A stretch of DNA of 64,000 nt, taken from IMG/VR virus record IMGVR_UViG_3300046170_000302, one strand, 5' to 3'. The translations under genes were made by a program, and so were the position numbers. The notes below the pieces were generated by a model. The model was not told the DNA's origin. It did not search any database and saw only the letters and a list, made by a program, of their open reading frames with translations. How positions within the stretch are numbered: position 1 is the stretch's first letter; each line of letters opens with the position of its first letter. Positions 14,327-55,526 of the stretch are shown piece after piece. Source of the DNA: a virus. Lineage: Duplodnaviria; Caudoviricetes.

Positions 14327-17300
14327 ATGCCACTCAGTCGCTTAGATAATTTCCTAAAGAACGTTCGTGGTAACATTCTTTATGTAAACCCAAATGACCT
14401 GGATGCCACTGATAGTATTGAGAATCAGGGCAACTCGATGGGTCGCCCGTTCCTTACAATTCAGAGAGCACTTGTAGAAGCAGCTAGATTCTCATATCAG
14501 GTTGGATTAGACAATGATCGTTTTGCAAAGACGACGATCATGTTGTATCCTGCAGAACACGTTATTGATAACAGACCAGGATGGATTCCTGATGGCACAA
14601 ATAACTATCAGTTGAGGGATGGCACTACCTCTTCTGATTTTTCACCTTTTAACTCCACATCAAACTTTGATCTTACTACCACTGATAATGCACTTTACAA
14701 ACTGAACTCTATTCATGGTGGTGTCATTGTTCCCCGTGGTGTTTCGATTGTTGGACAAGATCTGAGAAAGACAAAGATTCGTCCTCTATATGTTCCCAAC
14801 CCTGAGAACGATAGTATTGAAAGAACTTCTCTATTCAGACTGACAGGTGGTTGTTACCTGTGGCAGTTCTCGATGTTTGATGCTGATCCAAATGGATTAG
14901 CATATAAGGACTATACAACTGCTCAGTTTGTTCCTAACTTCTCACACCACAAACTCACTTGTTTTGAGTATGCTGATGGTGCAAATGGTGTCAATATTGC
15001 TGATAACTTTGTAACCTACTCATCTGCCAGAACTGATCTGGATATGTATTATGAGAAGGTTGGTTTGGCCTATGGTTCTGCATCTGGTAGAGCAATCGAA
15101 CCTGATTATCCTTCAGGAACACTTGATATTCAAACCAAGGTTGATGAATTCCGTATTGTCGGACCAACTGGTGGTGAAGTTGGTATTACAAGTATCAAGG
15201 CTGGTGATGGTTCTACATCTACTGCTATTGTTACTGCAACAATGTCGTCTGGTGTTGCTGGTTTGGATGTAGATACTACATTCATTGTAAATGGTGTTGC
15301 AGATAGTGATTATAATGGTAGTTATTCTGTTCAGGAAGTTCTGACTAGTAATTCTGATGGTGAAACACTATCATTTCACTTACCAAATTCCTGATATTCC
15401 TGTCGATGCACTTCCTGCTGTGACTGGTGCGACTGTATCTCTCGATACTGATACAGTTACCTCTGCATCTCCATACATCTTCAATATCTCACTGAGATCA
15501 GTGTATGGTATGTGTGGTATGCACGCTGATGGATCAAAAGCCACTGGATTTAAATCCATGGTTGTTGCTCAATTCACTGGTGTATCTCTCCAGAAGGATG
15601 ACAATGCATTCCTGAAGTTCAACCAAAGCACAGGTGGATTTGATGATTCCACCACTGTAGATAACCTCCATAGTGATCCTAACGCTATCTACAAGCCTTC
15701 ATATTATAACTTCCATATGAAGACATCGAACAACTCTGTAACTCAGCAAGTTTCGATCTTCGCTATTGGTTTTGCACAACAGTTCATCAACGAATCTGGT
15801 GGTGATACCAGTATTACGAACTCCAACTCTAACTTTGGTCAGAACTCACTGATTTCGAAAGGATTTAGAGAAGAAGCATTTACAAGAGACGATGTTGGTT
15901 ATATTTCACACATTATTCCACCAAGGGAGAGTGTAACACAGAATGTCAATCTAGAATTTAATTCTATTGATGTAGCAAAGACTGTTGGTGTTGCATCCAC
16001 TGGTCATCTTTATCTGTATCAGGAGACAAACGAGTCTTCTATTCCTGAAACTGTTATTCAGGGATACAGAGTTGGAGCTAAGGTGAATGATAAGTTGAAT
16101 GTTATCATCTCACAAGGTGGAACTCCAACTAACTACTTTGCTCGTATCGTGATGCCTGATACAGACAAGAGTTCTGTAAAGGCATACAATATTGGTAGAA
16201 ATGTAGGAACAGGTAATAGTATTGCATCTTCTACTATCACCTTCACTGAGAATCATGGATTTATTAATGGTGAAAGTGTTAGAATTCTGAGTGATAATGC
16301 TAGACTACCTGATGGTCTGGACAACAATAGACTATATTTCGCTATTACTGATGGTGTTGCTGCTAACCAGATTCAACTGGCAACCACACTCAATGATTCT
16401 CTAGATGGTTCAGAAACCAGTTTCAACAACGCTGGTGGTAACCTGGTAATTGAATCGAGAGTTTCTGATAAGATCGCTGGTGATATTGGACACCCTGTTC
16501 AGTATGACAACACTCAGAATCAGTGGTTTGTTAATGTATCTACTACCACCACAGAGAATACCATCTATGGAACAGTAGCTTCTCTTGGTGTGGCTGGTCT
16601 TGGAGATGCAACACCAAGAACATTCATCACTAGAAAACCTGATACCAGAAAGAATAACGAGAAGATTTATACATTCAGATATGTAGTTCCTGCTGGTAGT
16701 GGTATTACCTCTGCTCGTGCTCCTAGAGTCAATTATGTTCTTCAGGAATCAAACAAAGTAACTGGTGACAGTAATGTTGAGGTTGCACTTCAGTATAACC
16801 CAAGTTTGGTCACCATGACCAACGAAACTGAGATGAGAAACTTCAGTTTCTTGAGAGAGGCTAATTGGTCTGGTGGTACTTCATACTTCACTTCTGAACA
16901 ACCACATGGTTTGATTGAAGGAACACAAATTAGAATCAAGAATGTCCAGTCTGGTAATAATACAACTGGTGTTCGCTAACTCAGCATTCAATAATAAATT
17001 CACAGTTTCTGGTATCTCAAGTGCTAACACCTTCTTTGTAAGTGGTCCTGTAGCTGATCCTGGTTCATTCCAGAACAATACATCACTGAGAACCACATCT
17101 CTACCTACATTCCAGAGAACACAATCCAAGGATACTTTCTTCATCTATGATGTTAATACTCTAAGAGAGTATGTGACTGGAGAACAAGATGGTATCTACT
17201 ACTTGACTGTTATTGATTCTTCTAACACTCCTGTTGTATCACCATTCAATGATAAGGAACAATTCTCATTCCCATCACCTATCAGAGATCTGTATCCACA

Positions 17301-20174
17301 GTATGATAGAGATAATCCTCAGTTTGATCCAAAGGGTTCTAAGACATATGCCAAACCAACTCCTCTTGGTGAAGTTGTAGTTGATGATCCTAGAAACAGT
17401 ATCACTAAAAAGACTATTGATACCTGCTTTACTTGACTTTGGTGTGGGTCTTGGTGTTACTGATATTATCTCCAACCCAACAGGAACAGCTCATACCATC
17501 TTCACTCAACATGATCATGGATTGAACAGAGCTGCTGTTGTTAGTGTTGCTAGTAGTGGTGCTGGATATGGTAATGGTACTGGATCTATTGAGAACCTTT
17601 ATAACGCAATCCTTGTTAATACAGGAAGTGCAAGAGGAGTAAGTGCTACAGGCAAGAATCACAGTAGATGGTTCTGGTAGTATCTCAGGTGTTGAGGTCA
17701 TGAACAGTGGTTCTGACTATCAAGTTGGAGATGTTCTGAATATAACTGGAACGGCTACAACCACAGGATTCTCACAAGCAACTGTAACTGTAACACAAAT
17801 CAGTAGTAATGTTGGTGATACAGTTCGTGTTGCTGGTATTCAATCTACTTCATATGAAGGATATAACTCACTCTATCGTATTACTGGTATTACTACCAAT
17901 AACGCCTTTGAAGCTTCATCCGTTGTAGCTATCAGTGGAGCTAGTGTAACTGGTGTTGGTGTAACACTTTCTACAAACGCGTTCACTCATGTAACTGGTA
18001 AGACACTGGATGTTTCATCTATTGTTTATGACAATGTAAGTGGATTTGCAACTGTTGTTACATCTCAAAATCATGGTTTGAGACCTAATAATAAGATTGT
18101 GTTTGGTGGAGCTGATACTGAACTGGCTAATGGAGACTTCTTGGTTACAGAGATTACTAATCTCACAACATTCACAGCAAATATTGGTATTAGTACTCTA
18201 TCACCAACTATTGGTGGAACTATCAAGGCATATCTTCCTGGATTGACTTCACAAGAAGGTCCAGCTGTCCTATATGGTGAGAACTTTGGTGGTAGAGTTC
18301 AGGATATCTACGCTGGTATTACAACTACACTTTCTTCAGCTGTTTCTTCTTCGTCTGATGATGAAGTTGAAATCCTCAATATTGAAAATCTAGATATCAA
18401 CATTGGTGATTATCTGAGAATTGATGATGAGGTTCTTAGAGTTAAGAGAACTGTAACTGGAAACCCAGTTCGTGTATTCAGAGGATTGTTTGGAACAAGA
18501 GCTTCTATACATGACGCTGGTTCTGTTGTAAGAAGAATTAAAGTCAATAGTGCTGAGTTTAGAAGACCTTCTATTGTTAGAGCTTCTGGTCACACCTTTG
18601 AGTATCAAGGTTATGGACCTGGTAACTACTCAACTGCACTTCCTGACAGACAGGATACTTCACCTACACTAACAGAACAGACACTATCCCAGTCCTTCAG
18701 GTCTGATGGTGGTCTCAGTGTTTACACTGGTATGAATGATAAGGGTGACTACTTTGTTGGTAACAGAAGACTTTCTTCTACTACTGGTAAGGCTGACATC
18801 TATAATACACCTGTACCAACGGTTACCTGGTGAGGATGTTGCATCTGTAGATAGAGATGTAAGTGTTGATATTGTTGAGACATCAGCAGCTGACATCACT
18901 GGTTCTATCAAGGTTAGTGGTGGTATCAATAATAACTTTGTATCAGAGTTTGATGGTCCTGTTGTACTGAATAAGAAGGTAACTTCTACTTCTGAAGATG
19001 GTTTGGAAGCTGTAAGTCTCTTCCTTCAGGGTGATGCCACTGTTTCTAGAAAATATACAGTTGGTATTTCTACTCCAGTGAACGCTGGAAACCCTGGTGA
19101 TGTAGTTTATAACGCTAATCCCAGCACCTGGTGGTATTCTTGGTTGGAGTTATACCACTGATAATAATTGGAGTACCTTTCGGTGCTGTATCACTTGACC
19201 AGTATGGTCAGAGTGTTCTGTTTGATAAGGTTGGTATTGCAACTGGTGCACTCGGTGAGAGCACCGTATTGGTTGGTTCTGGTTCTACACAGGTATCCAT
19301 TGATGGAACAGGTGGTGTAGGTATTGGAACCACAGCTAATGGGTTCAAACTTCATGTCTTTGGTGGAAACATCAGAGGTACATTTGAGGGTGATGGTTCA
19401 CAACTTTCTAACCTTGATAGTATCTGGACTAACAACTCCACCAATGAGTGGGCATATACCAAGGACAATCCTGACCTGAAGGTTGGTATTGGAACATCAC
19501 TGGGTGTTACTTCACAACTAAGGATCGCAGGTACGGCTACTACTTCACTGTGGGTCGCCAATGAATCACGATTTGATGGTAAAGTATACTTCAACCAAGA
19601 TGTTGTAATTGGTTCTGGTGTCACACTATCTGTTGGTGATATTGAAACAACTGGTGGTTCATTGAATGTTGGTCTGATGACCGCAACTCAACTACATGTT
19701 GGAACTGGTGGCACGATTCTTTCTACCCCCGCGAATGGTGAGTTTGTTGGTGTCGGTATTGGAACTACGGCACCAAGAGCATCACTTGATGTTGAAGGTA
19801 CGGCTAGACTTAAGTCTTATTATGAGATAGCAAAAACTGTTACGAGTGATTCTGGTGTTGTAACTCTGAATCTTTCAGAGGCTCAATCATTCCTTCTCAC
19901 TACTTCTGAAAACATCACTTCCTTCACTCTCACAGGTGCGGCAGCTGATTCCACTACAGCATTCACACTGAAGATTCTTCAAGGTGGAACAGCTCGTGGA
20001 GTTGGTATAGATACATTCAGAACAAGTGGTGGTTCACCGATTCCGGTATATTGGCCGGGTGGTTCAGTTCCTGTAGTTACACCAACAGCAGCTAAAACTG
20101 ATATCTACTCCTTTATGACTTTTGATGGTGGAACTTCTCTGTTCGGTGTTGTTGGAGGTCAGAACTTCTCATGA
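14327..20174 (+). CDS. Giant (~1950 aa) tail fibre-like virion protein, split into 7 ORF-track pieces by +1 frameshifts
   Basis: Starts MPLSRLDNFLKN. Extra bases at ~15375, 16973, 17425, 17651, 18828, 19127 and 19170 join the pieces seamlessly. VGIGT fibre motifs; ends in the socket-type domain (...WPGG...DIYSF...QNFS). Confidence 0.75.
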
Positions 20175-22548
20175 GTGCAGTAGGATTTCACTTATATCGT
20201 TCAATACCGACACAGTTGGACCTTAATGGTCCACTGTTGTCATTTACACAACAACCAGAATCTGTGAGCACTGATGGGTCATCAGTGACTCTAACTGGTA
20301 TTGCAACAGTATCATTTGCCAGCACAAATCCAACTAACAGTGGAACACTTAAGTATCAATGGTATGAGATTGGTGTTGGTCCTGTCAGTGATGGTAATGG
20401 AGTAACAGGATCTGCCACAACTACACTATCCTTACAGAGTTTGGTATCACCTACTGATAGTGGTAGAGACTTCTACCTTGAAGCTTCATATGAACCATCA
20501 ACAGAGACTGGTTCTGGTATTAATGAACCATTCAACTCAAATACTGTAACAGTAACAATTTTCCCATTCATTGAGATTATTGCTCAACCATCTAATAGCA
20601 CTACAATTCCAAATAGAAATACAACATTCAACATTGATGCAAGTCTTTCTGACGCAACATTTGCAGAATCTCTTACTTATCAATGGACTTTAAATGGAAA
20701 TGATGCTGTAGATGGAACAACAACACAAGAAATTCCTGTCACAAGATTTGAAGAAACATTTTCTTCAGATACCACAGTCACACTTCCTAGTGATGCATTA
20801 GATATTGAGATTGAAGTTGCTGGTGGATCTGGTGGCGGTGGTGGTGGTGATGCAGGAGGTTCCCTGGTGGTGGAGGCAGGTGGTAGATATGGTAAGTTTT
20901 CATATAATGGTGCAGGAACCACACTAGATTTGAAAGTTGGTAGATCTGGTAATGGTGGCACTAGTGGAAATGCAGGTGCCTATGGTACTGGTGGTGCTAG
21001 TGGAGTTGCGTGGCTGGTGGTAGAGGTGGTGGTGCTGGACCTGGTGGTTGGTCTGGTGGTGGAGGCGGAGGCGGTGGTGCCTCTGGTGTTTATGATAGAA
21101 ATAGTGGTTCATATACTATCGTGTCTGGCGGCGGTGGAGGAGGCGGTGGTGCCTCACATAATGCATCAGCATCTGGTGGCGGATCTGGTAGTAGTTTTGT
21201 CCCTGTTGGTGGTTCATTTTCTGTCTCTGGTGGTTCTCAAGGACAAACTGCAGGTGGTGATGGCGGCGGTGGAGGAGGCGGAGGCGGTGGCGCCCCTGGT
21301 TCCGGCGGTGGTGGTTCAGGTCAAGATAACTCCCGTGGTGGCAGCGGAGGATCTGGTGGAGGTTCCAAGTTTGACAACACTAGAGCTACTACACTATTAG
21401 ATCAAAGAATTCTAGTGGTAATGGTTTCATTAAAATCAAGTATGATGTTCCCTGCTGGTAGTAGTTCCACAGGTATTGTAAAAATCATCAATACTACATT
21501 GAGTGGTTCACAAACCGAATCACTTACTGCAAGTTCTGATACTGTCGGTATTCAAACAATAACTTGCAAGTTAACTCACCCAACCGCAACTAACTCACCA
21601 CTTGAAAGTGATGTAGCATTGTTCTCTGCTATCTCTAATGCAGATTCATTCCCAATTATTGTTGAGGCTATTGGTGGGTTGACAGAAGCTAGTATCTCAT
21701 CTATTGATTTGTTTAATGGTGATTTTGAAATTGATACTACAGGCAGTGGTGATATTAGTGGTGGAGAGTATACAAACTACTACAGTATCTACTCCCCAGA
21801 TAAAGATATTGAGGTAGAGGTTGATTTATATGGTGGTAAGGGTGCTAATTCCGGTTCCTTTGTTGGTGGTGAAGGTGGATTCTCAAGAATCAGATTTACA
21901 ATGGAACAGAATGTTGAGTATATACTGACTGGATTGAATACACTTATTGATGCTCCATTCCTGTATCGTAAAGGTTCACTGATTGCCTGTGTGGGACAAG
22001 GTGGTTCCGCAGGTAGTAGTGGAAATGGTGGATTTGGTGGAGGTATTGGTGTATCTGGTGATGAAGGTTATGGTAGAAGAGGTGGAAATGGTGGTGAATC
22101 TGTTTCTGCTGGTACTCTTTCTAATATTGGTATCTTTGGTTCACTCTTTACCACTGCAGTACCAGTCGCACCAGATACAACAGCAACGAACCCTGATGGT
22201 GGTAGAACACTACCCTGTCCTTATGGTGTCTATTGGAGAAACCAAGGCGTATCAGCCTGTTCTGATGTAGGAACTACACAGTTTAGATTGTCTGATGGCA
22301 CTATCGTAACCAATACAGCAAATATCACTAGAGGATATAAGGCTGGTTATAGTATTATTGAAACTGCTGGTCTAGGTAATGTAAATGGTGGAAACGGTGG
22401 CAATGGAGCCACAGGTGGACAAGGTGGAGTTGGTGGAGATGGAGGCGGTGGTGCTTCTGGATACACGAATGGTAGTGTTACAGTTGTATCATCTATTCTT
22501 GGTGGTAGTAATGGAGTTGCTAAGGCAATATTCAGAGTAGTTTTATAG
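20171..22548 (+). CDS. Fibre tip protein with Ig-like repeats and Gly-rich segments; frameshifted near 21010
   Basis: ATGA-coupled to the giant fibre; two FTQQPES/IIAQPSN...YQW Ig-like units, then GGGGG-rich blocks. Confidence 0.65.
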
Positions 22549-22556: not shown

Positions 22557-22593
22557 AGTATAAGGTGGATAGTGAAACCTTTATAGGAGAAAA

Positions 22594-23559
22594 ATGGCTG
22601 TCAACAAGAATTTTGTAGTCAAAAATGGGATTGAAGTTGCAGAGGATTTAATCTTTGCAAATTCAGACCTAGGTAAAGTCGGTATTGGTTCCACTATCCC
22701 AACCACTACCCTTGACGTTAAAGGTCAGGGTATTGCAGCTGAAGATGGTCTGTTTACTGGAATTGTAACCGCAATATCTGAACTCAATGTGGGTTCAGGT
22801 GGAACAGTTATTACTGCATTGTCATCAGGTCTAATTGGACTTGGTACTGCATCTCCTCAATATAATGTACATATTGTAAGACCAAGCCCTGAGGCATCAG
22901 GTGAGATTTCAACCTCACTTTATGTGTCAGGTGATGTTACTGTAACTGGTCGTGTTCAATCAAACGCGATTACAAATAGTTCAGAAGTAACGACTGCTAA
23001 CTTAAATGTTACTGGTATTGCTACTGTCAGCAGTCTTGAGGCATCACAGAAGGAAATCTTCACTCAGTTTGATGTAGTTAATAGTGGTAGTGGAGCCTAT
23101 CAGTTCAATGCAACTGGTATTGGTTTTACACAGAACACTAATAATCCCACTCTTTATCTAACAAGAGGTGAGAATTATCGTTTCTCTGTAAATGCATCTG
23201 GTCATCCATTTTATATTAAAACATTAAATTCAACTGGAACTGGTAATGCTTATAATGATGGTGTTGCCAATAATGGTGCAGCAGTTGGAATTGTAACCTT
23301 TAAGGTTCCATATAATGCACCTGATATCTTACATTATAATTGCTCTATCCATTCTTCAATGCACGGAGAAATTCGTGTTGGAGGGTCAGGTGCTGGCGTA
23401 GGTGTTGGTTCTGAAGGAACTTTCATTGGTGCTGGTGTTACGATGATTGATTTTAAATCATCAAATGGATTAAACACCGTTGATATTTCATCAGGAATTG
23501 CATCAGTCACCGTAACAACCGGTGCATCTATTGGTCTTGTAATCGCTCTTGGCGGTTAA
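22594..23559 (+). CDS. Fibre stub protein with cupredoxin-like domain
   Basis: VGIGSTIPTTTLDV fibre motifs; GHPF...YNCSIHSSM; C-terminus GASIGLVIALGG. Confidence 0.65.
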   Translation: MAVNKNFVVKNGIEVAEDLIFANSDLGKVGIGSTIPTTTLDVKGQGIAAEDGLFTGIVTAISELNVGSGGTVITALSSGLIGLGTASPQYNVHIVRPSPEASGEISTSLYVSGDVTVTGRVQSNAITNSSEVTTANLNVTGIATVSSLEASQKEIFTQFDVVNSGSGAYQFNATGIGFTQNTNNPTLYLTRGENYRFSVNASGHPFYIKTLNSTGTGNAYNDGVANNGAAVGIVTFKVPYNAPDILHYNCSIHSSMHGEIRVGGSGAGVGVGSEGTFIGAGVTMIDFKSSNGLNTVDISSGIASVTVTTGASIGLVIALGG

Positions 23560-23586: not shown

Positions 23587-24120
23587 ATGGCAGAATTATT
23601 TGTAAATGCGTTAGCTAAATCGGCAGGTATTGTTACGACCAGTTCCAATGGTACTATTGGAGCTAATGCTATCACAATCACCGGTATCTCAACTGTAGGA
23701 GTAAGTGTCGGTTATCTTGTTGATACCCAACACTTCAGAGGTGGCGCAAAAGTAAAAGCTCTTGGAGCAAGTCAAGTCACTGTAGATAAAACATCTACAA
23801 ATACTGCTTCTGCCGCTAATCAGAACGTTAAGTTCCTAGGACCAACAACCTCATACGCATCACCATCTTCAACTAAGAGTATTTTGATTGGTGGTACATT
23901 CTCAAACCTCACAAATAACAATGTGAATATTACAGTTGAGGTTGTGACTGGTGTAACATCTACAACTATTGCAAATAACATCCCTGTTCCTAGTGGAAGT
24001 TCTTTTGTTATTAGTGATGCTGGTAAGACAGTATTGGCTGGAGGAGATATAGTGAATATCTATTGTGATACAGAAAATGCTATTGATGTAACACTAGGTG
24101 TTCTTCAGGGGGTTAGCTAA
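23587..24120 (+). CDS. Small fibre adaptor-like protein (class 1)
   Basis: 177 aa; C-terminal half resembles 40835..41236. Confidence 0.5.
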   Translation: MAELFVNALAKSAGIVTTSSNGTIGANAITITGISTVGVSVGYLVDTQHFRGGAKVKALGASQVTVDKTSTNTASAANQNVKFLGPTTSYASPSSTKSILIGGTFSNLTNNNVNITVEVVTGVTSTTIANNIPVPSGSSFVISDAGKTVLAGGDIVNIYCDTENAIDVTLGVLQGVS

Positions 24121-36737: not shown

Positions 36738-36748
36738 ATAACTAAAAA
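36734..36748 (+). promoter_or_regulatory. T4-type late promoter (extended form)
   Basis: ATAAATAACTAAAAA overlapping the upstream stop codon. Confidence 0.75.
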
Positions 36749-36757
36749 GATATCGCC

Positions 36758-43314: not shown

Positions 43315-44042
43315 ATGTCACAGCTCTACGTTAACAATATTAAGAGTCGAGTGGGTGGAGCTGTTAGTTTCACTCAGGGCATCATTAGTGCTGGAGCAAC
43401 CTTCAGTGGGAAATGTATCGGTTGGTGGGAACACTGACCGTATGAGATGTAACCAATATTGACTCAGTTGGTGTTGTAACTGCTAGAACAGGAATTAAAG
43501 TTCTCGCAGGTGGTATTAATGCAGTTGGTGTTGTAACTGCTACTAGTTTTTCAGGTGATGGATCAAGTCTTTCTGGTGTTGTTTCTGGTATTGAAGTTAA
43601 ATCTGGCGGATCATCAGTAGGTACATCACTTACAGCAATTAATTTCTCTGGTGCTACAGCTAGTACTGGGTCTGCTGGAATTACAACGATTACTATTGCT
43701 GCTGCAGGTATCAACACAACAGCATCATCACCATCAGCAAATACAGTTGTTACACTAAATTTAAGCACAGCACAACATCATGACCTGACACTAACAGCAG
43801 GTATTACAACAATTACTTGTAGTGGTGGTAGTTTTGGTGATTCGCACTCAGTTGTGATAAGTCAACCATCATCAGGTATTGCTACTGTTGGGTTTAGCAC
43901 ATTCTTCTTATTCCCATCAGGGTCAACACCAAGTATGTCAACAGGAAGTGGTAAGGTAGATTTAGTTTCATTTGTAGTGAAACGAGTAGGCGCAGGAGGG
44001 ACACAGTTACTAGCATCTGCTGGTCTCAACTACAGCAACTGA
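43315..44042 (+). CDS. Fibre stub with socket-type C-terminal domain; local frameshifts at ~43410-43445
   Basis: MSQLYVNNIKSR start; ...DVTNIDSVG...; C-terminus closely resembles that of 30012 (FLFPSGS.PS...SF.V.RVGA.GTQLLA). Confidence 0.65.
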
Positions 44043-44055: not shown

Positions 44056-47000
44056 ATGGGAGTATTAATTCCGAGTTTACAGTCAGGACTTCTTAATCAG
44101 TCTAGTGCTCAAATAGTTGATGGTAGTTTGAAGTTTAATGAAACATCAGGTAGTTATCTAACTAGAACTCCAAGCTCTAATGGAAATAGAAAAACTTGGA
44201 CTTGGAGTTGCTGGTGTAAGATTGCAAAACTTCCAGTAAGTGGAACAAATGGTGATAGAACTTTGTTTTCCGCAGTTGATACTTCAAATGGTGGTGATGA
44301 CGATGCTATAAGATTTATTAGATCTGGAATAACTGGAGGGCAGAGTTTATATTGGAGTTCCTCTGAGTATAATGTAGGGGATGAAGAAGCAATATACACA
44401 AATGCGGTTCTACGCGATCCTAATGCGTTTTATCATGTAGTTCTTATAAAAGATACAACACAATCAAGTTTGGCTAATGGTCAAATGAGAATGTATATTA
44501 ATGGAGTAGAACAATCATTAGTTGAATCAAATGCTATTTCGCAAAATGCAGAAAGAGCTATAAATTCACAAATCCCACATGCCATTGGTGATCATTATGG
44601 TCAAGATAGACCATGGGATGGAATGATGACTCAGGTCTATCTAATAGACGGATTATCACTTGGTCCTGGATATTTTGGATTCACTGATCCACTCACAAAT
44701 ACTTGGAGACCTAAAAAGTTTAAAGCAGAGGGAACGACTTTAAATGATGGTACTGTTTGGAGTTCTAAGGTAACAGGAGCAAATAATCCAGCAAATGCAT
44801 TTGATGGAAGTCTATCCTCAAATATGGATAATAATGGTTCTGCTGGAACACCTATTGTTCTAACGGCATCTTTCACAAATGTAACCTCATTTAGATACTA
44901 TACAAGTAATAGCAGTGCTCATGATGTTTCATTTAGTGGAGGAAGTGTAACAACTGATGCGGCATCATCTGGCTGGAGAACTGTTTCTGCACCTTCATCA
45001 ATAACTTCAATATCATGGATTCATTCAAATGAACCGGCTGCGTATGTTGTAATAGAGGCAATTGAAATTAATGGAGAAATTTTAAGAGATAGCACTACAA
45101 CAAACCTTGCCTTTGGAACAAATGGTTTCTACCTCCCAATGGATGGAAACTCACCAATTGGAGAAGATAAATCTGGTAGAGGAAACAACTGGACACCATC
45201 AGGATTTGGTGGTTCTTTAGAACTTGGTAATCCAAATGTATCTGGTGCAAAACCAATCCTGAATACTGATGGTGGTGGTAATGTTGCAAGACCTGGTGTA
45301 TTTGGTAGTGAAGTAGGAGCATATTATGCAGTTACTGTTGCATCGGTAGGTGGTGGAAACAGATATCACTTTGATGGAGTAGATAGACCTAATCCCACAC
45401 TAATTCGTGGTGCAACATATACCTTCGACCAATCAGATAGTTCTAACTCTGGTCATCCACTCAGATTTGCCACAGCTGCTGATGCTGCTGGAAGTTCACA
45501 ATATACTGATGGTGTTGTAACAAATGGAACACCTGGTTCTGCTGGTGCATATACCAAGATTACAGTTCCACATAATGCACCAAATACCTTACATTATTAT
45601 TGCACAAATCACGGTGGTATGGGAAGCTCTACTTCTCAAACCACTGATGAAACCAAAGCAGACCCTTATGCCTGGAAGAATACTCTTGCACTTCCATTAG
45701 TTGGTAGTGCTAATGATGTAAGTAATTCTGTTAATAGTGGAAGCACGACAAAGACAATTACTGTTTCTGGTCCGGTTGCCTCAACTGTTCAAAGTAACTT
45801 TTATAGTGGTAGTTTTGTATTTGATGGTTCTAATGATAGAATAATTACTGCAACTGATGCATCTCTGGAATTTGATGGAGATTTTACTTTCGAAGCATGG
45901 GCTAATAGAACTGCAACTGGAAGAGAGTGTTTATTTGCACAATGGCTTAACTCTTCAAGTGCTAATAGGTGGAGACTTGAATTGGATAAAACCAGCGGTA
46001 AGGTTACTTTTGTTGATGGAGAGAGCAATGAACAATCATTTACTTATACAAGCGGTGTAGGAACATGGAATCACTGGGCTATCACCCGTAGTGGTAATAC
46101 TGCATATATTTTTGAAAATGGAAATCAGATTGGGACATGGACCAGTACTACAAATCTTGGAAACGGAGGAGATTTTACTGTAGGAAATACTGAAGATGGA
46201 GGGCTTTGGTGGCAGGGATATATACAGGATGTAAGAGCTTATAAAGGAGTAGCAAAATACACCAGTAACTTTGTAGTTCCCGCAACCTCCCCAGACGTTC
46301 TTCCAGACACCCCATCAGGTGTGAGTGGTAGTTCTAAACTTACTAAAGTCATTGATGGTGCTGTGCATTTTGATGGAACTGGTGACTATTTGAGTCTTGC
46401 TGATAGTGATGATATTGACTTGACTGGAAGTATTAGTTTTACAGTTGAGGCATTTATCTACAAAAAGGATAGTGCAGAGGATCAAATTTTTGAATTTAGA
46501 GGTGGAGGATCTACAGGATGGACTTTATATACCACAACAAGTAATACTCTTCAGATATATGACTCTGTTGCAAATACTCAAGTTGGAACATCAACGGGAA
46601 AGATCATTCCAAACGCATGGAATCATATTGCTCTGACCAAGAATGGTAGTGGATCTAACAATTGTGACTTTTGGATTAATGGAGTAAATTCTGGAACATT
46701 TAGTTTAGCTTCCTTTGCAACAACAGATAGTACTGGACTTCGTATTGGTGCATCTAAAGATACTTCGGCATTCTTTACTGGGTTTATGAGTAATGTTCGT
46801 ATCCTCAAAGGAACCGCACTTTATACCTCAAACTTCACACCATCAACAACACCACTCACTAATGTAACCAACACAAAACTCCTGTGTTGCCAGTCTAATA
46901 CTTCTGCTAATTTAACAGGAGTATCACCAGCAACTTTCAGTAATGATGGAAGAACATATAGTTCAGGTGTAACATTCTCTCCAGGAGTATTGAGTTCAAC

Positions 47001-49074
47001 TAGAGGTGGTGATAAAGCATTTAATGGCACAATCTCTGATAATGCCTCAGCATCTACTAATAATCCTTCACTTTTGACTGCATCTTTTTCAGCAAACCTT
47101 ACTGGAGTTACATCTTTAAAAATATACAGTGGTTCTAATAGTTCTAATGCTTATATTAATGGTGCATCAGGTAGTACTGTTTCAATTACAGCAAACAACT
47201 GGACTGACTTAACATCATTAGCATCTGGTGCAAGTGGAACTATCAGTAGTATATCGGTTGTAACTGCTGGAGATAATGCACAGTTAGCTGCTGTAGAAGT
47301 TAATGGTTGTATTCTTGTTGATGGACTTGTGGGAGAGGCATTGGTAAGAGTAGGAGACACAGCAGCAACCAACTTCAACCCATTCAACACTGATATAAAC
47401 ACAGTTCGTGGACAAGAGACTGATTATTGCACTATAAATCCATTAGATGGATATGTTTCCACGAAAGATGGAAACCTGGAGACATCCACAAGTAGTGGAT
47501 GGCAGAGTATTAGAGCAACACTTGGAATGAATTCTGGTAAGTTCTATTGGGAAACTCAAAACAACCAAGATGCTTCAGCAATCCTTGGAATTGCTGATTC
47601 GGAAGCAACAGGGTTTGTGGATGGAAGTATTTTTGGCAGTACTGGTCATGGAGGCGGAGATGCAAATCCTGCATATACTTGGGCAGGTGCGAACTACTAC
47701 TTTAATGCAACTACAGCAGGCACCGGACTTTCAAACCATGTTCCTTCAGATGTTGTTCAGTATGCGTTTGATGCTGATAGTGGTAAACTTTGGTTTGGAA
47801 GAAATGGTGTTTGGTACAGTTCCTCTTGGGGAACCACTGGAAACCCTGCGGGTGGTTCTAACGCAACAGTGAGTGGCATAAACACTACTAAGACATATCT
47901 TGCCTGTGCTTCCTTTTATAATGGTTCAGGTAAATTTAACTTTGGACAAAAACCCTTCAAGTTCCCACCACCTGATGGTTTCTCACCACTGAATGCTGCT
48001 AATGTTCTTCCAGAGACTGTAATTACACGTCCTGATAAGTATGTTGGGGCAACAATTTGGGATGGAACAGGATCAGCAAGAAGCATAGATATTGGTACAC
48101 AACCAGACCTAGTTTGGGTTAAAGTAAGAAATCATACTTATTATCATTATTTGGTTGATTCTGTCAGAGGAGCAGGAAAAGAATTAAACTCAAACACAAC
48201 CGACGATGAATATACGGACACCAGCAATATATCTGCATTTAACGCCAACGGATTTAGTTTGGGAACTGGGGCTGGTGTAAACCAATCTGGTGGAAAAAAT
48301 TATGTGGCATGGTGCTGGAAAGCTGGTGGAAACAAAAACACCTTTAATGTTGATGATGTAGGTTATGCAAGTGCTGCTGCGGCAGGATTAGATGGTGGAA
48401 ATATTAATCCTAACCGTGCATCTGTTGGGACCAAGCAAGGTTTCAGTATCATAAGATATACTGGGACCGATGCAACATCAAATACTTTTTCTCACGGATT
48501 GACCCAAAAACCAGATTTTGCAATATTTAAGAATACATCTCAAGATGGAGACGATTGGATTGTATATCACTCCTCTATAGGAGCAACAAAGAGACTAAAA
48601 TTAAACTCATCTAATGCAGCTGATTCTCAAACCTCTCAATTCAATGATACCGAACCAACATCGTCAGTGTTCACCATTGGAACCTATGATAATATTAATA
48701 AACTGAATAATAATTATATCAGTTACATATGGCACAATGTCCCCGGACTACAGAAATTTGGTTCCGTTGAAACGGTTAGTGACGTTGGGTATGCTGAGAT
48801 AGGATTTAGACCAGCACTTGTAATCTTTAAAAATATAGATGCCAGTTCGAGTTGGTCCATTAGAGATAATAAAAGAGTCCCGTATAATCCCAATGACATA
48901 TTATTGAGGGCAGATACAGCCGGTGAAGACTTTACAAGCAGTGGAAAAGTAGATTTTCTCTCTAATGGGTTTAAGATTCAAGGTAGTGGTTTTGGCAGTT
49001 ATACATATATCTACGCAGCATGGGCAGAAGCACCAGCATTTAACTTGTATGGCGCACAGTCAAACGCCAGATAA
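44056..49074 (+). CDS. Giant (1672 aa) LamG/SPRY adhesin-like protein with an inserted cupredoxin-like domain
   Basis: Paralog of 30931 (MGVLIP start, AWAEAP..NL.GAQSNAR end); GHPL...YYCTNHGGM insert. Confidence 0.78.
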   Translation: MGVLIPSLQSGLLNQSSAQIVDGSLKFNETSGSYLTRTPSSNGNRKTWTWSCWCKIAKLPVSGTNGDRTLFSAVDTSNGGDDDAIRFIRSGITGGQSLYWSSSEYNVGDEEAIYTNAVLRDPNAFYHVVLIKDTTQSSLANGQMRMYINGVEQSLVESNAISQNAERAINSQIPHAIGDHYGQDRPWDGMMTQVYLIDGLSLGPGYFGFTDPLTNTWRPKKFKAEGTTLNDGTVWSSKVTGANNPANAFDGSLSSNMDNNGSAGTPIVLTASFTNVTSFRYYTSNSSAHDVSFSGGSVTTDAASSGWRTVSAPSSITSISWIHSNEPAAYVVIEAIEINGEILRDSTTTNLAFGTNGFYLPMDGNSPIGEDKSGRGNNWTPSGFGGSLELGNPNVSGAKPILNTDGGGNVARPGVFGSEVGAYYAVTVASVGGGNRYHFDGVDRPNPTLIRGATYTFDQSDSSNSGHPLRFATAADAAGSSQYTDGVVTNGTPGSAGAYTKITVPHNAPNTLHYYCTNHGGMGSSTSQTTDETKADPYAWKNTLALPLVGSANDVSNSVNSGSTTKTITVSGPVASTVQSNFYSGSFVFDGSNDRIITATDASLEFDGDFTFEAWANRTATGRECLFAQWLNSSSANRWRLELDKTSGKVTFVDGESNEQSFTYTSGVGTWNHWAITRSGNTAYIFENGNQIGTWTSTTNLGNGGDFTVGNTEDGGLWWQGYIQDVRAYKGVAKYTSNFVVPATSPDVLPDTPSGVSGSSKLTKVIDGAVHFDGTGDYLSLADSDDIDLTGSISFTVEAFIYKKDSAEDQIFEFRGGGSTGWTLYTTTSNTLQIYDSVANTQVGTSTGKIIPNAWNHIALTKNGSGSNNCDFWINGVNSGTFSLASFATTDSTGLRIGASKDTSAFFTGFMSNVRILKGTALYTSNFTPSTTPLTNVTNTKLLCCQSNTSANLTGVSPATFSNDGRTYSSGVTFSPGVLSSTRGGDKAFNGTISDNASASTNNPSLLTASFSANLTGVTSLKIYSGSNSSNAYINGASGSTVSITANNWTDLTSLASGASGTISSISVVTAGDNAQLAAVEVNGCILVDGLVGEALVRVGDTAATNFNPFNTDINTVRGQETDYCTINPLDGYVSTKDGNLETSTSSGWQSIRATLGMNSGKFYWETQNNQDASAILGIADSEATGFVDGSIFGSTGHGGGDANPAYTWAGANYYFNATTAGTGLSNHVPSDVVQYAFDADSGKLWFGRNGVWYSSSWGTTGNPAGGSNATVSGINTTKTYLACASFYNGSGKFNFGQKPFKFPPPDGFSPLNAANVLPETVITRPDKYVGATIWDGTGSARSIDIGTQPDLVWVKVRNHTYYHYLVDSVRGAGKELNSNTTDDEYTDTSNISAFNANGFSLGTGAGVNQSGGKNYVAWCWKAGGNKNTFNVDDVGYASAAAAGLDGGNINPNRASVGTKQGFSIIRYTGTDATSNTFSHGLTQKPDFAIFKNTSQDGDDWIVYHSSIGATKRLKLNSSNAADSQTSQFNDTEPTSSVFTIGTYDNINKLNNNYISYIWHNVPGLQKFGSVETVSDVGYAEIGFRPALVIFKNIDASSSWSIRDNKRVPYNPNDILLRADTAGEDFTSSGKVDFLSNGFKIQGSGFGSYTYIYAAWAEAPAFNLYGAQSNAR

Positions 49075-49103: not shown

Positions 49104-49127
49104 ACAACTGAATACATTATACATTGA

Positions 49128-51031: not shown

Positions 51032-51042
51032 GTGGATAAAAG

Positions 51043-51468
51043 ATGGCGATATCCAACGCTGTTAGTCTAGCTAACTTTACTTCTGGCGATTCACTCATCA
51101 TTGATAGTGCTAATGATAGAGTCGGTATTGCTACTACGGTACCAACTACTACACTTGATGTTGCTGGTGGTGTAAAAGTCAGTGGTGTGGTGACGGCTAC
51201 ATCATTTGTTGGTAGTGGTGCTAACCTCACCGATGTAATCTCTGGTGTTGAACTAAAACAATCTGGAAATAGTGTTGGTACCAGTATTACTGCTATCAAT
51301 TTTAATGGTGCTACAGTATCAACACCAGTAGCTGGTTTAGCTACCGTATCGGTTGCACAAAACCTCACCATTGCAGTGAGAGTGGGATCAGCTGTTACCT
51401 TTGCAATTAGTGGAAGCACATTCAATATTTCCAATAGAGCTGGTGGAAATGTTCCCATCAATGTTTGA
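51043..51468 (+). CDS. Short fibre stub
   Basis: RVGIATTVPTTTLDVAG, TATSFVGSGANLT fibre motifs. Confidence 0.65.
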   Translation: MAISNAVSLANFTSGDSLIIDSANDRVGIATTVPTTTLDVAGGVKVSGVVTATSFVGSGANLTDVISGVELKQSGNSVGTSITAINFNGATVSTPVAGLATVSVAQNLTIAVRVGSAVTFAISGSTFNISNRAGGNVPINV

Positions 51469-51497
51469 TAAATACCAACATAGGAGTTTAATTCAAA

Positions 51498-52136
51498 ATG
51501 GCTAACAGATTTCCACTTATTGCTAACTCAAGCAGTAATCAAATCCAAGAACTTGCCAACGCAGATAATCTTGATCTCACGGGTAATAACATTGTTGGAG
51601 TAGTCAACATCTCTGCTAGTGGAACTGTATCTGTTGGTGGTACACTCACATATGAAGATGTAACTAACGTAGATTCTGTTGGTTTGATTACCGCTAGGAC
51701 TGGTATTAATGTAGTTGCTGGTGTTTCAACATTTAAAGGTGCTAACTTCAACGGTGGATTACTGTTGAGAGAGAAGATTAAGATCACCGCTGGTAAGTTG
51801 AGTGATAATCTTAATATCAACCTTGATAATGGTATGGTTCACCATTTCACAACACAAGAAACCACAACAGCAATTCCAAACATCATGTCAGCTGTTGGAA
51901 TTAATACACAAATGGACACTGGTGACGCAGTAGCAGTTACTATTATCACTACAGCAGCTGCAGGTGGATATTCAGCTTCCATCAAGATTGATGGTGCTGC
52001 TAATGATGTAAAATGGTCTGGTGGTGCTGATCCATCAGCTGGTGGAGCTTCTGGTAATGATGTTTATGCACTACAAATTATTAAGACAGGATCGGCAGCT
52101 TATACGGTACTTGGTGCACTAAACAACTTCGCTTGA
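51498..52136 (+). CDS. Fibre stub with socket-type C-terminal domain
   Basis: MANRFPLIAN; YEDVTNVDSVG; ends KWSGG..P...DVY...NNFA; ATAAATA at 51468. Confidence 0.65.
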   Translation: MANRFPLIANSSSNQIQELANADNLDLTGNNIVGVVNISASGTVSVGGTLTYEDVTNVDSVGLITARTGINVVAGVSTFKGANFNGGLLLREKIKITAGKLSDNLNINLDNGMVHHFTTQETTTAIPNIMSAVGINTQMDTGDAVAVTIITTAAAGGYSASIKIDGAANDVKWSGGADPSAGGASGNDVYALQIIKTGSAAYTVLGALNNFA

Positions 52137-52151
52137 TAGGAGATAAAAACA

Positions 52152-55100
52152 ATGTTACTTGATAACTATAAAAAGCAAAGTCCAATTGTAGGTGTTGCTG
52201 GATTAGGTGGAGGTATCAACTCATATATCTTCCTATCATCTGGTGAAGATTATGTCATTTCCAAAAGCTTGCGTTTCAATTCAGGAGACTCGGCTTATCT
52301 TAATCGCACCCCAAGTTCTGCGTCTAATCGCAAGACGTGGACTTGGAGTGGCTGGGTAAAACGTTCAGACATAAGTGCTACAAAAACACTATGGGCGTCC
52401 TCAACTCTTTCTTCAATTAGATTTGCGACTAACAGTGAAATCGAATGGTTATACGAAGGCAATTATGGCCTCAAAACTAATGCGGTATTTCGAGATATTT
52501 CCGCATGGTATCACTTCGTTTTTGTTCTTGACACAACAAATTCTACGGCAGATGATCGTCAAAAAATATATGTAAATGGTACTCAATTAACCAGTTTTGC
52601 GAGCAGAGGAAACCCGTCTTTAAACTCAGACAAGCAGTGGAACGCTGCCTCTGCTCATGCAATAGGGGCTAAGCCTGATGCTTCAGTTGAGTTTGATGGT
52701 CATTTAGCCGAAATTAATTTTGTCGATGGTCAAGCATTATCACCAACAGATTTTGGTGAGTTTGATACATCTGGAGTATGGCAACCGAAGAAATACAGTG
52801 GTTCTTATGGCACAAATGGTTTCCATCTTGATTTCAAAGATAGTAGTTCAAACGCAGCTCTTGGATATGATGCTGCTGGTAGTAATAACTTTACTGTTAA
52901 TAACTTAACGGCATCAGCGCCTGGTCTTGCGACTGCTAATCAAGGGATGGATGTTGTTACTTATACAGGTAATGCTGGCACAAAAGTTGTCAGTGGATTG
53001 GCCTTCCAACCAGATCTTTTATGGTTGAAAAGAAGAGATGGTGAAGCTCACCATTATCTAGTTGACTCAGTTCGTGGTCTTGGCACAAGTGAACGACTTG
53101 CCTCTGATAGGACTGATGCTGGTGGTGATGGTACTCAAAGAGTAGCGTCTTTTAATTCAGACGGTTTCACTGTATCTGGCAATTATGGTTACACAAATAT
53201 TAGTGGGGGCAATTATGTAGCCTGGGCTTGGAAGGCTGGCGGATCTGCGTCGTCAAATACAGATGGAACGCTAACAAGTCAGGTATCGGCAAATACTACT
53301 TATGGGTTCAGTATTGTTAAATTTACAATGGGTTCTAGCGATGTCACCTGCGGCCATGGCTTGGCCGTTGAGCCTAAGTTTATAATTACAAAACGATATG
53401 GCAGCACTGGAAGTTGGATTACTTATCACGCATCACTAGGTAAGAGCAAGTACATGATGCTTAACAGTACAGCAGTAGCATATACTGATACTGCAGACGC
53501 ATACACAAGCACCAACAGTTCAGTCTTTGACGCTCGTGCGGGGTTGATAGATGCTGGTGATTGTATTAGCTACGTGTGGTCAGAAATTGCCGGATTTAGT
53601 AAGTTTGGAACATTTACGCATAGTGGTGGTGGTCAAACGCTTGATTTCGGATTTACGCCAAGATATTGGCTAGTTAAAGAAACTGATGGAACAACTCCTT
53701 GGTATATCTTTGATGCTGAGCGAGATAATTTTGATGATCCCTTATATACAAACACCAATGGCACGGAGGGTAGCAACTTTGGATTTACTTTCTCTGGTAC
53801 TACTGTCACTTGGGTAGGTGGTAGTTTTCTTGCAGGCACCTACATCTACAGTGCATTTGCGGCAAAGCCCGACCAGACTGTAATTGACTCCCTACTCGAC
53901 TCACCATCACAAAGTGTTGCAGATGAGACAGATACTGGTCTCGGAGGCCAAATAACAGGGAATTACGCGACGCTCAACCCACTCGATCCAACGACAGTAA
54001 CGTTGTCTAACGGCAATCTTGATTGTGTCACTAACAATGCTGGAACACATGTGCGTGGAACGATAGGAATTAGCAGTGGCAAATGGTATTGGGAAGTTGT
54101 TGCAGGTTCTTCGCCCGAATTGCTTGTTGGCATTTGCACTCCATCTCTTCCTTTCAATACAGACATGACTGGGGGTGGTGGCTACAGCTATTATTCAGGT
54201 AACGGCAATAAATACACAACTTCAGGGTCTAGTTATGGTGCTAGTTGGACTACTGGAGATACCATTGGAGTTGCGTTTGATGCTGACGCTGGAACACTAA
54301 CTTTCTATAAAAATGGTTCTAGCCAAGGTCAAGCCTTTTCAGGATTAACGTCTGGGCCGTATTTCCCAGCAGCATCGGACGGAAGTTCATCTGCAAGCTC
54401 TAACTTTATCATCAACTTCGGCCAACGTGCCTTCTCCCACGCAGCTCCAAGTGGCTACAAGGCTTTAACCGTTGAAAACTTACCGACACCAACGATTGCG
54501 GATGGTAGTAAGTTTTTTGATACGAAGTTGGTTTCAGGCAATAGCTCAACACAGACCATTTCTGGACTCAATTTTTCCCCAGATTTTGTTTGGGCAAAGT
54601 CAAGAAGTCACACGACCGACCACTATTTATTTGATACTGTTCGTGGCGCTACTAATGATTTAAAGTCAAACAGCACTAGTGCCGAAGGTTCTAACAGTGG
54701 CTTGACTCAGTTTAATTCTGATGGATATAACATAGGTTCAGACTCCTCGATGAATACATCAGGACGAACGTATGTAAACTGGGCTTGGGACGCCGGAACA
54801 TCGACTGTAACTAACAACGACGGCAGTATTGCTTCACAAGTAAGAGCCAACCCAGCTGCTGGGTTCTCGATTGTTACTTATTCTGGTAATGAAAGTGGTG
54901 CAACTGTAGGTCACGGATTAAATGCACCTTTGCAAATGATCTGGATCAAACAAAGGACTAACCATTCCACAACAGGTAAAGGCGATGGTAATTGGATTGT
55001 TGGACATGTTGGAGTTGGAATGGGATCAGGTCGTTTAATTTTAAATGACACTTATGCAAATGATAATGGAAGTAGTGCCGGGGGTCACTGGAACAGTACT

Positions 55101-55526
55101 GCGGCTACAAGTTCTGTGTTTTCGGTAGGTAGTTCTGGGAATGTAAATGGAAGCAACAATGCTACTTATGTCGCCTACTGCTTCGCACCTATTGAAGGAT
55201 ATAGCGCAATGGGCAGTTACATCGGCAATTCAAATGTTAATGGTCCGTTTGTATACACCGGATTTAGACCTAGCTGGATTATGTTTAAACCAGTAGCTGG
55301 TCATGATTGGGTAATCATGGATGTTAAACGTGATACTTATAACATTATGGATACATCTCTTTATCCAAACGCTGTTTCTACTGATACAAGTTCTAATCCT
55401 AGATTAGATATTCTGAGTAATGGGTTTAAGATACGTTCAACTTATGCTTCATCAAACCCATCTGGCACCGCCGTTATATACGCCGCCTTTGCTGAACATC
55501 CCTTCAATTCATCAAGAGCACGTTGA
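52152..55526 (+). CDS. Large (1124 aa) LamG/SPRY adhesin-like protein
   Basis: LRFNSG...RKTWTWSGW LamG-like N-domain; PDLLWLK domain; SPRY; second PDFVWAK domain; ends YAAFAEHPF. Confidence 0.75.
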   Translation: MLLDNYKKQSPIVGVAGLGGGINSYIFLSSGEDYVISKSLRFNSGDSAYLNRTPSSASNRKTWTWSGWVKRSDISATKTLWASSTLSSIRFATNSEIEWLYEGNYGLKTNAVFRDISAWYHFVFVLDTTNSTADDRQKIYVNGTQLTSFASRGNPSLNSDKQWNAASAHAIGAKPDASVEFDGHLAEINFVDGQALSPTDFGEFDTSGVWQPKKYSGSYGTNGFHLDFKDSSSNAALGYDAAGSNNFTVNNLTASAPGLATANQGMDVVTYTGNAGTKVVSGLAFQPDLLWLKRRDGEAHHYLVDSVRGLGTSERLASDRTDAGGDGTQRVASFNSDGFTVSGNYGYTNISGGNYVAWAWKAGGSASSNTDGTLTSQVSANTTYGFSIVKFTMGSSDVTCGHGLAVEPKFIITKRYGSTGSWITYHASLGKSKYMMLNSTAVAYTDTADAYTSTNSSVFDARAGLIDAGDCISYVWSEIAGFSKFGTFTHSGGGQTLDFGFTPRYWLVKETDGTTPWYIFDAERDNFDDPLYTNTNGTEGSNFGFTFSGTTVTWVGGSFLAGTYIYSAFAAKPDQTVIDSLLDSPSQSVADETDTGLGGQITGNYATLNPLDPTTVTLSNGNLDCVTNNAGTHVRGTIGISSGKWYWEVVAGSSPELLVGICTPSLPFNTDMTGGGGYSYYSGNGNKYTTSGSSYGASWTTGDTIGVAFDADAGTLTFYKNGSSQGQAFSGLTSGPYFPAASDGSSSASSNFIINFGQRAFSHAAPSGYKALTVENLPTPTIADGSKFFDTKLVSGNSSTQTISGLNFSPDFVWAKSRSHTTDHYLFDTVRGATNDLKSNSTSAEGSNSGLTQFNSDGYNIGSDSSMNTSGRTYVNWAWDAGTSTVTNNDGSIASQVRANPAAGFSIVTYSGNESGATVGHGLNAPLQMIWIKQRTNHSTTGKGDGNWIVGHVGVGMGSGRLILNDTYANDNGSSAGGHWNSTAATSSVFSVGSSGNVNGSNNATYVAYCFAPIEGYSAMGSYIGNSNVNGPFVYTGFRPSWIMFKPVAGHDWVIMDVKRDTYNIMDTSLYPNAVSTDTSSNPRLDILSNGFKIRSTYASSNPSGTAVIYAAFAEHPFNSSRAR

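Follow-up and report, generated by a model that had tools for sequence, protein, structure and literature searches.

The window analyzed here is a stretch of 64,000 nt of viral DNA (Caudoviricetes; IMG/VR record IMGVR_UViG_3300046170_000302), on whose plus strand genes for a T4-type baseplate hub and tail precede ∼41 kb of fibre genes; it is the fibre region of a T4-like marine cyanophage. The fibres of this array are proposed to be built of separately translated pieces, which would be joined non-covalently by matched ends with small jelly-roll adaptors between them, and a probability of roughly 0.6 was assigned to this reading. Genes and their products are named by their first position in the window (Table 1).

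According to the proposed mechanism, a fibre piece would end in a class-specific tag of 8–13 residues at its extreme C-terminus, and the next gene would encode a jelly-roll adaptor of 110–190 amino acid residues (class 1a, 1b or 2), whose N-terminal strand, C-terminal strand and invariant lysine would grip the tag. The product of the gene after the adaptor (a fibre piece, or a Gly_rich_2 or LamG tip) would attach to the adaptor by its own N-terminal peptide, or plug. Two further junctions would be free of adaptors: a carrier with a C-terminal socket domain of 120 residues, after which comes a LamG/DUF7483 tip, and an end ...DILQIGDL, followed by a start MSxLxVNNI. Different receptor-binding tips would thereby probably be snapped onto common stalks and, because plugs and tags are short and portable, any tip could come onto any stalk by recombination.

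Tags, adaptor classes and plugs

A first-pass annotation of the window had proposed three recurring junction types (A, B and C), and the genes, end-peptides and gene order that it described were recovered. Frameshifted fibre genes were treated as single genes, as they had been before. In type B, stub 22594 (GLVIALGG) is followed by adaptor 23587 and then by 24120 (MADRSGYIGR), and stub 40588 (KAIALSMVFG) by adaptor 40835 and then by 41249 (MGYLGRR). The two type B adaptors had been placed together in a class 1, which did not hold: no likeness between them was found by BLASTP and their profile similarity was remote (hhalign E 2e-4, probability 49%; 1a proteins were matched by the 1b hidden Markov model (HMM) at 1e-5 to 1e-4), so the class was split into 1a (23587) and 1b (40835). 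The type C adaptors, 25030 and 37788, are homologs of each other (32% identity, E 1e-16) and form class 2; they follow the tags ITASLFN and DTWLYGGG and precede the starts MAPIK and MAPFK, as had been described. The daisy chain through 24120, which is cargo of the 1a adaptor and class 2 stub at once, was likewise found.

Full-length HMM matches were obtained between adaptor 23587 and phrog_26609 (E 1.6e-68) and between the class 2 adaptors and phrog_20100 (E 1.4e-50 and 6.8e-39, positions 1–123 of 123), while 40835 matched no Pfam or PHROG family. None of the four adaptors matched Pfam at E ≤ 0.01, and their PHROG matches were of unknown function throughout, so that no known chaperone family was among them. 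When the three classes were examined as one superfamily by hhalign, 1b matched class 2 at E 0.011 and class 2 gave nothing with 1a, the fold being compared for 1b and class 2. Class 1b occurs at no fewer than 554 loci in IMG/VR, and its family comprises 2005 clusters at 50% identity in a library of 1.8 billion proteins, mostly as stand-alone proteins. The ESM Atlas returned unnamed viral clusters only, and no prior description of the adaptor family and its tags was found in Pfam, PHROG annotation, the PDB or the searchable literature.

Rule tables were built from adaptor-centred IMG/VR loci, of which 18 (1a), 58 (1b) and 22 (class 2) were non-redundant. The expected upstream tag was present at 16/18 loci of class 1a, 46/58 of class 1b and 22/22 of class 2; in reverse, the tag predicted the adaptor class at 15/15 (1a) and 41/42 (1b) loci. 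The proposed rule from C-terminal peptide to adaptor class is thus nearly one-to-one in both directions. The upstream end reads ...S[IL]GL[AV]IALG[GA] in class 1a, ...[ST]GKAIAM[AS]IVFG(G) in class 1b, and ...D[IV]T[AS]SLFx, ...ELDAxLFN or ...DTWL[YF](GGG/N) in class 2, in which an intermediate at locus L021 (...DTWLFN) joins the two spellings of the tag. In an alignment of 48 class 1b stub tails the last ∼13 residues were conserved, and the stub sequence before them was unrelated between loci. The second half of the rule, from adaptor class to downstream N-peptide, proved strong for class 1a, after which proteins start M[AP]DR[NS]GYIGR.P, but loose for class 1b and class 2.

IMG/VR was also scanned for the peptides alone, with degenerate DNA patterns and without selection on an adaptor or socket gene. 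The peptide GKAIAMAIVFG was terminal in its open reading frame (ORF) at 80/80 loci, and the next gene encoded a 1b adaptor in 74 of the 77 with enough downstream sequence. The peptide NGYIGRAP lay at ORF residues 5–12 in 38/39 matches, and a 1a adaptor preceded it in 38/38. For ..GAQVIDGS, a peptide found after sockets, a protein with the FPSG socket preceded all 19 N-terminal matches; the other nine were internal or out-of-context chance matches in unrelated proteins. According to these reverse scans, the pattern of tag, adaptor and plug lies far beyond chance, and junction types B and C, as judged from sequence, are real and hold far beyond the window genome.

The same rules could arise if whole cassettes were inherited by recombination, the conserved ends then being joints at the DNA level rather than protein contacts, and the promoter-like box that each module carries would suit such an origin. 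We regard it as very improbable, given that the peptides are conserved as amino acids where the adaptors are only 40–50% identical to those of the window, were found by a fully degenerate DNA pattern, always stand at the extreme terminus (80/80 and 38/38) and coincide with the predicted interface described below.

In the siphovirus S-SKS1 (locus L147, record 6732–9988), a 'baseplate wedge subunit' of 1727 residues ends ...PIMMGMIF and is followed by a 1b adaptor and two paralogous tips with near-identical N-peptides (MLGFNGGTIG and MPLYNGGRIG), the first of which ends LamG-type-like; the second was read at its N-terminus only. In phage DSL-LC04 (locus L146), the stub before the 1b adaptor ends in a normal tag, GKSIAMAMIFGF, although the record labels it as having an 'intramolecular chaperone auto-processing domain'.

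Predicted fold and contacts of the adaptors

For both 40835 (class 1b) and 37788 (class 2), the prediction was a single jelly-roll whose nine strands come in one and the same order, with predicted local distance difference test (pLDDT) values of 83 and 85, and the fold is common to the two classes. Their shared top PDB matches were the trimeric cement protein of KHP40 (7dou_4; Z 9.5 and 10.3), 4ind_A, the HFTV1 turret (8qpg_TD) and Ena subunits; since these Z values are near those of unrelated jelly-rolls, they establish the fold and not the function. A Foldseek search of the PDB with the 1b adaptor gave nothing at E ≤ 0.001. The closest BFVD models were small phage proteins (template modelling score up to 0.88), several of which are annotated as virion proteins (S-TIM5, S-SCSM1 and MaMV-DC). 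For S-SCSM1, the virion labels rest on purified particles examined by mass spectrometry (PMC9602691). No 1b homolog was detectable by sequence in S-SCSM1, and its virion protein of 112 residues is therefore a look-alike by fold only. In S-TIM5, a 'virion structural protein' of 96 residues ends ...INSLIFG directly before an adaptor-like ORF of 131 residues.

A complex was modelled from three copies of stub 40588 and three copies of adaptor 40835. The predicted contact joins stub residues 61–71, which are exactly the tag, to adaptor residues 6–12, K49, 130 and 132, and these residues correspond to invariant or nearly invariant columns in the stub and adaptor alignments. The model lends weak support to a contact between tag and adaptor, and it was given some weight mainly because interface and conservation agree.

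Fusion proteins bear on the other side of the adaptor. The adaptor is N-terminally fused to Laminin_G_3 domains in P0086 and P0143 (above the Pfam cut-off) and is also fused to other C-terminal domains. Large insertions into adaptor loops, either propeller-like (∼270 residues) or cupredoxin-like (∼90 residues), were observed in P0039, P0044, P0052 and P0057, and a tandem pair was also seen. The loop of P0057, a metagenomic 1b adaptor, holds the cupredoxin-like sequence GHPFWIQT...YYVCQNHSAMAG, which resembles GHPFYIKT...YNCSIHSSMHG of stub 22594 (window positions 23065–23385), and the cupredoxin-like module seems to move around this fibre system.

Several points weigh against adaptors that join fibre pieces. 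The interaction prediction score from aligned errors (ipSAE) of the complex was 0.40, 0.45 and 0.54 (median 0.45), against 0.00 for the best of three controls; the mark for this score was reached by 58/80 solved complexes and 2/110 mismatched pairs, but the band up to 0.60 held only 7/80 solved complexes and both passing mismatches, so that a score within it is more often wrong than right unless the contact was likely beforehand, and the 3:3 layout and author-made alignments moreover fall outside the calibration. The tag is missing at 12/58 loci of class 1b, S-CBWM1 has an orphan adaptor copy that lacks the context, and the loci of class 1a and class 2 belong for the most part to a single orthologous module and cannot be taken as independent counts. 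After class 1b, the motif [IVL]G was found within the first 12 residues of 37/52 downstream proteins (16% in the background), and after class 2 the strict pattern of M, small, aliphatic and basic residue in 10/22 (1.3% in the background). Because these N-peptides are enriched yet loose, we only infer, from gene order, peptide enrichment and the fusion proteins, that the downstream protein binds the adaptor; the adaptors are likewise presumed to be trimeric and to be present in the virion. Finally, a small gene just after a fibre gene, with a product that binds the fibre C-terminus, is also the signature of a fibre chaperone.

The small proteins might accordingly be read as chaperones of fibre assembly, comparable to Tfa or T4 gp38/gp57, which would aid trimerization of the fibre and would not be linkers. 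Both their gene position, immediately downstream of the fibre gene, and the contact predicted for the fibre C-terminus fit known chaperones, and the Pam3 fibre with its downstream chaperone is a precedent. A folding helper would be expected to recognize a fold, however, and only a tag of 13 residues is common to the otherwise unrelated stubs, some of which are as short as 72 residues. Nor would a chaperone explain why the N-peptide of the following protein is predictable from class 1a (38/38), and the four adaptors match no known chaperone family (Pfam at E ≤ 0.01; PHROGs), while their fold look-alikes are annotated virion proteins. The fusions to LamG domains and the large loop insertions are hard to understand in a protein that the virion does not display, and they speak for a connector in the virion and against a chaperone; chaperones are considered an unlikely explanation.

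It would also be conceivable that the jelly-roll is the distal, lectin-like knob of the upstream fibre and that the downstream Gly-rich and LamG proteins are independent, adjoining fibres. Here the position of adaptor 1a is informative, as it stands between two fibre pieces of which the second always has the GYIGR start. Moreover, the surface of the adaptor shows a high conservation (mean column identity 60%) that is unlike receptor-binding heads, and the fusion proteins carry their variable domain on the C-terminal side of the adaptor. Such a knob is improbable in our judgement, even though jelly-roll trimers cap many fibres, the fold matches include the Sf6 needle knob and TNF/C1q heads, the records of S-CBWM1 and DSL-LC04 label the homologs 'putative lectin', binding-type domains are inserted in adaptor loops and S-TIM5 has no tip gene after its adaptor-like ORF.

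Sockets, adaptor-free junctions and exchange of ends

For type A, the four genes 14327, 30012, 43315 and 51498 had been grouped by a similar C-terminal domain in front of a large tip gene. This stood for 30012 and 43315, which share the FPSG socket (HMM E 1e-59 and 1e-47) and both precede proteins starting MGVLIP, but not for 14327 and 51498, which are not detectably related to the FPSG family. An alignment of all four was too diverse to serve as a search query, and no likeness of the 14327 C-terminus or 51498 to the FPSG family was found with an independently built FPSG HMM, by BLASTP or by profile (hhalign probability 0.2%). The 14327 C-terminus and 51498 showed a weak mutual likeness (25% identity, E 5e-5). 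The gene after 14327 is Gly-rich rather than LamG/DUF7483; the 51498 family comprises 5262 proteins at E ≤ 0.001, and a SPRY/DUF7483 protein stood directly next in both contexts that were read. Type A therefore comprises at least two unrelated junctions of similar layout. At 23/23 IMG/VR loci, the FPSG socket lay at the end of carriers of 215–756 residues with at least four kinds of N-terminus, and at every one of these loci the next protein was of the LamG/DUF7483 kind, with the start M..[IA][IL]PQV...SGAQVIDGSLKF....

A further junction without a separate adaptor (junction D) consists of an end ...D[IV]LQI[GS]DL followed by a stub that starts MS.L.V.N., as observed at 7/7 non-redundant loci; the window pair 36765 and 37454 has these ends as judged by eye. 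Some fibre chains start with MSxLxVNNI, MTRAxxLA or MANRFPLI.

The combination of N-terminal plug and C-terminal tag was tabulated for all fetched loci. The plug GYIGR occurred with tag 2 in 15 proteins, with a socket in 12, with a Gly-rich end in two and with other ends in 15, and never with tags 1a or 1b. The plug MAVNKNF was combined with tag 1a (33), a socket (two) or another end (one), and with tag 1b, tag 2 and the Gly-rich end in no case. MSxLxVNNI was found with tag 1b (four), tag 2 (eight), a socket (four) or other ends (11), and MTRAxxLA with tag 2 (one), a socket (six) or another end (one); tag 1a and the Gly-rich end were absent from both, as was tag 1b from MTRAxxLA. Among the GYIGR proteins recovered by the NGYIGRAP scan, at least four kinds of end were present (tag 2, socket domain, ...LYQLGDL and other). 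Tips may likewise be homologous and carry different plugs, as do the window Gly_rich_2 proteins 41249 (GYLGR, after class 1b) and 25437 (MAPIK, after class 2). As read from the gene sequences, plugs and tags are exchanged freely between proteins by recombination. For the window, a combinatorial code had been suggested whose elements are terminal peptides and small adaptors; it is supported by the tag and adaptor counts, the peptide scans and the plugs that occur with several tags, and weakly by the complex model.

A wider proposal is that the adaptors form trimeric hubs with three cargo sites, in which case one stalk could carry up to three different tips and many phage lineages would use a C-terminal tag of 11–13 residues plus adaptor as a general, natural snap-on system to build branched fibres of mixed specificity; this we hold to be rather unlikely. 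Its best hint is the pair of paralogous tips after a single adaptor, in the window (25437 and 27377) and in S-SKS1, which might stand for branching or for alternative tips.

The fibre array, its relatives and its meaning

Synechococcus phage Bellamy (a member of the Kyanoviridae; 204,930 bp) is the isolate nearest to the window and shares its gene order. Among isolates, close relatives of the small adaptor genes were found in Bellamy only, and a match of 380 bp to Bellamy was the sole megablast match when 20 kb of window DNA was compared with the phage collection. An identical copy of protein 51498 was found on a contig of 205,010 bp.

Five fibre genes are broken by frameshifts: 14327–20174 (six times), 20171–22548, 27377–29447, 30931–36737 and 43315–44042, with at least ten shifts in all. 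Similarity runs on across every shift, and a tblastn comparison with Bellamy gp27 (gene 27; 1976 residues in one intact ORF) returned seven frame segments across 14327–20174. Programmed frameshifting was considered and rejected: no motif was common to the shift sites, and gene 27 of Bellamy, orthologous to the gene with the most breaks, is intact. Long homopolymers were not found at the sites. Errors in assembly or sequencing, not pseudogenes, are the most likely source of the shifts.

Table 1. Genes and other features of the fibre array, with positions in the window
Feature	Position	Strand	Basis or remark
Large fibre gene, Bellamy gene 27 ortholog, six frameshifts	14327..20174	+	phrog_529; tblastn; C-terminal WPGG...NFS domain
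Glycine-rich protein, Bellamy gene 28 ortholog, frameshifted	20171..22548	+	phrog_24848
Base stub; N-terminus MAVNKNFVVKNG, C-tag 1a ...SIGLVIALGG	22594..23559	+	N-terminus matches baseplate-wedge and fibre-connector PHROGs
Adaptor class 1a, 177 residues	23587..24120	+	phrog_26609
Link fibre; N-plug MADRSGYIGRAP (MADRSGYIGR), C-tag 2 ...DITASLFN; cargo of 1a and stub of class 2	24120..25010	+	
Adaptor class 2, 134 residues	25030..25434	+	phrog_20100
Gly_rich_2 tip, N-terminus MAPIK	25437..27350	+	PF21722
Second Gly_rich_2 tip, related N-terminus MGIRSQNNP, frameshifted; no stub or adaptor of its own	27377..29447	+	
Socket carrier; N-terminus MTRARELA, C-terminal FPSG...NFS domain	30012..30917	+	
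LamG/SPRY/DUF7483 tip, N-terminus MGVLIPQVV; frameshift near 34200	30931..36737	+	
Fibre-base protein, 229 residues, end ...IIDILQIGDL (junction type D)	36765..37454	+	phrog_18345
Stub; N-terminus MSKIITNNI, C-tag 2 ...FDTWLYGGG	37454..37759	+	
Adaptor class 2, 120 residues, predicted jelly-roll	37788..38150	+	phrog_20100
Gly_rich_2 tip, N-terminus MAPFK	38154..39242	+	
Stub, 72 residues; N-terminus MSRIQVDNI, C-tag 1b ...GKAIALSMVFG	40588..40806	+	
Adaptor class 1b, 133 residues, MAAPNIVNV family, predicted jelly-roll	40835..41236	+	
Gly_rich_2 tip, N-plug MGYLGRRIG	41249..43294	+	
Socket carrier (FPSG...NYSN), N-terminus MSQLYVNNI; frameshift near 43430	43315..44042	+	
LamG/SPRY/DUF7483 tip, N-terminus MGVLIPSLQ	44056..49074	+	
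Fibre-like protein, 141 residues, heading the last module	51043..51468	+	Same three-gene layout in Tara contigs
WSGG...NFA domain carrier, very common cyanomyovirus family	51498..52136	+	phrog_5906
SPRY/DUF7483 tip	52152..55526	+	
15-nt box TAAATAACTAAAAAG, late-promoter-like, one of eight	36735..36749	+	Others start at 11952, 27354, 29986, 37766, 40568, 43292 and 51018

Eight tip genes were counted, in agreement with the number first given: four Gly_rich_2 genes, the glycine-rich gene 20171 and three LamG/SPRY/DUF7483 genes. The Gly_rich_2 domain (PF21722, gathering cut-off 24.3 bits) scored 59.6, 53.8, 47.6 and 105.3 bits in 25437, 27377, 38154 and 41249, and DUF7483 (PF24299, gathering cut-off 27 bits), together with Laminin_G_3/SPRY, scored 259, 268 and 595 bits in 30931–36737, 44056 and 52152. 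By sequence, the Gly_rich_2 tips matched no solved structure in the PDB, and a DUF7483 tip matched SPRY domains only. The 15-nt box was found eight times with at most two mismatches (0.39 expected), each time just upstream of the head gene of a module, and it looks like a T4-type late promoter with a conserved leader.

Other genes lie between the modules. A protein of 146 residues (29505–29945, phrog_7759, MAHFAQLDGDNIV...) comes after the Gly-rich tips in the window and in Bellamy (gene 34), and a relative of it is the next gene at two (L212 and L222) of the three IMG/VR loci where the tag GKAIAMAIVFGG has no adaptor after it. Genes of 2OG-Fe(II) oxygenases are interleaved with the fibre modules (11276–11950, 39925–40476 and 49128–49481) and also stand beside fibre modules in phage DSL-LC04 (L146) and on a metagenomic contig of 200 kb (L334); the interleaved enzymes might modify fibre proteins.

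The long tail fibre of T4 and T2 is made of gp34, gp35, gp36 and gp37, with gp38 as an additional adhesin in T2/S16-type phages. The array resembles it in that serial gene products follow their physical order, a small non-fibrous connector would stand between trimeric rods and the glycine-rich tip adhesin is separately encoded. The N-terminus at the head of the five-part chain 22594-23587-24120-25030-25437 has PHROG matches of the baseplate-wedge and fibre-connector kinds. By analogy, the chain looks like the counterpart of this fibre. The window adaptors and stubs differ from it in having no match to any T4 fibre family in Pfam (E ≤ 0.01), and the jelly-roll adaptors of 110–190 residues, the portable tag at the extreme C-terminus, the several classes per genome and the Gly_rich_2 tips unmatched by solved structures set the array apart.

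Branched systems of receptor-binding proteins with anchor and branch proteins are known from CBA120 (TSP1–4), G7C (gp63.1/gp66), SP6/K1-5 and Klebsiella phages with dual receptor-binding proteins. These also place several tips on conserved docking modules and evolve by modular plug-and-play; however, they dock N-terminal domains on T4-gp10-like domains within a large anchor, whereas the parts here would be a free-standing small jelly-roll and terminal peptides. With the chaperones Tfa of lambda and Mu, T4 gp38 and Pam3 gp25, the adaptors share a small gene directly after the fibre gene and a contact with the fibre C-terminus, but no chaperone family matches them, they occur fused to tip domains and their other side has a conserved partner. 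Ena subunits of endospore appendages are joined by a terminal connector peptide. They and the KHP40 cement protein are single jelly-rolls of ∼110–125 residues, as the adaptors are (Z 8.7–10.3), but at 6–15% sequence identity and with Z values barely above those of unrelated jelly-rolls, this is a likeness of fold only. Modular fibres joined by adaptors are known already (T4 gp34–37; branched tailspikes of CBA120, SP6/K1-5 and Klebsiella phages).

The fibre regions of marine cyanomyoviruses are large and mostly annotated 'hypothetical'. A rule that can be read from sequence, from tag to adaptor class to plug, would let the wiring of fibres be predicted from genomes and metagenomes, and it would give a function to a very large family (the 2005 clusters above) without Pfam family or functional annotation. 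The pair of tag and adaptor may also serve as a small natural module for joining proteins. In the evolution of host range, the rule would explain how tips move between stalks.

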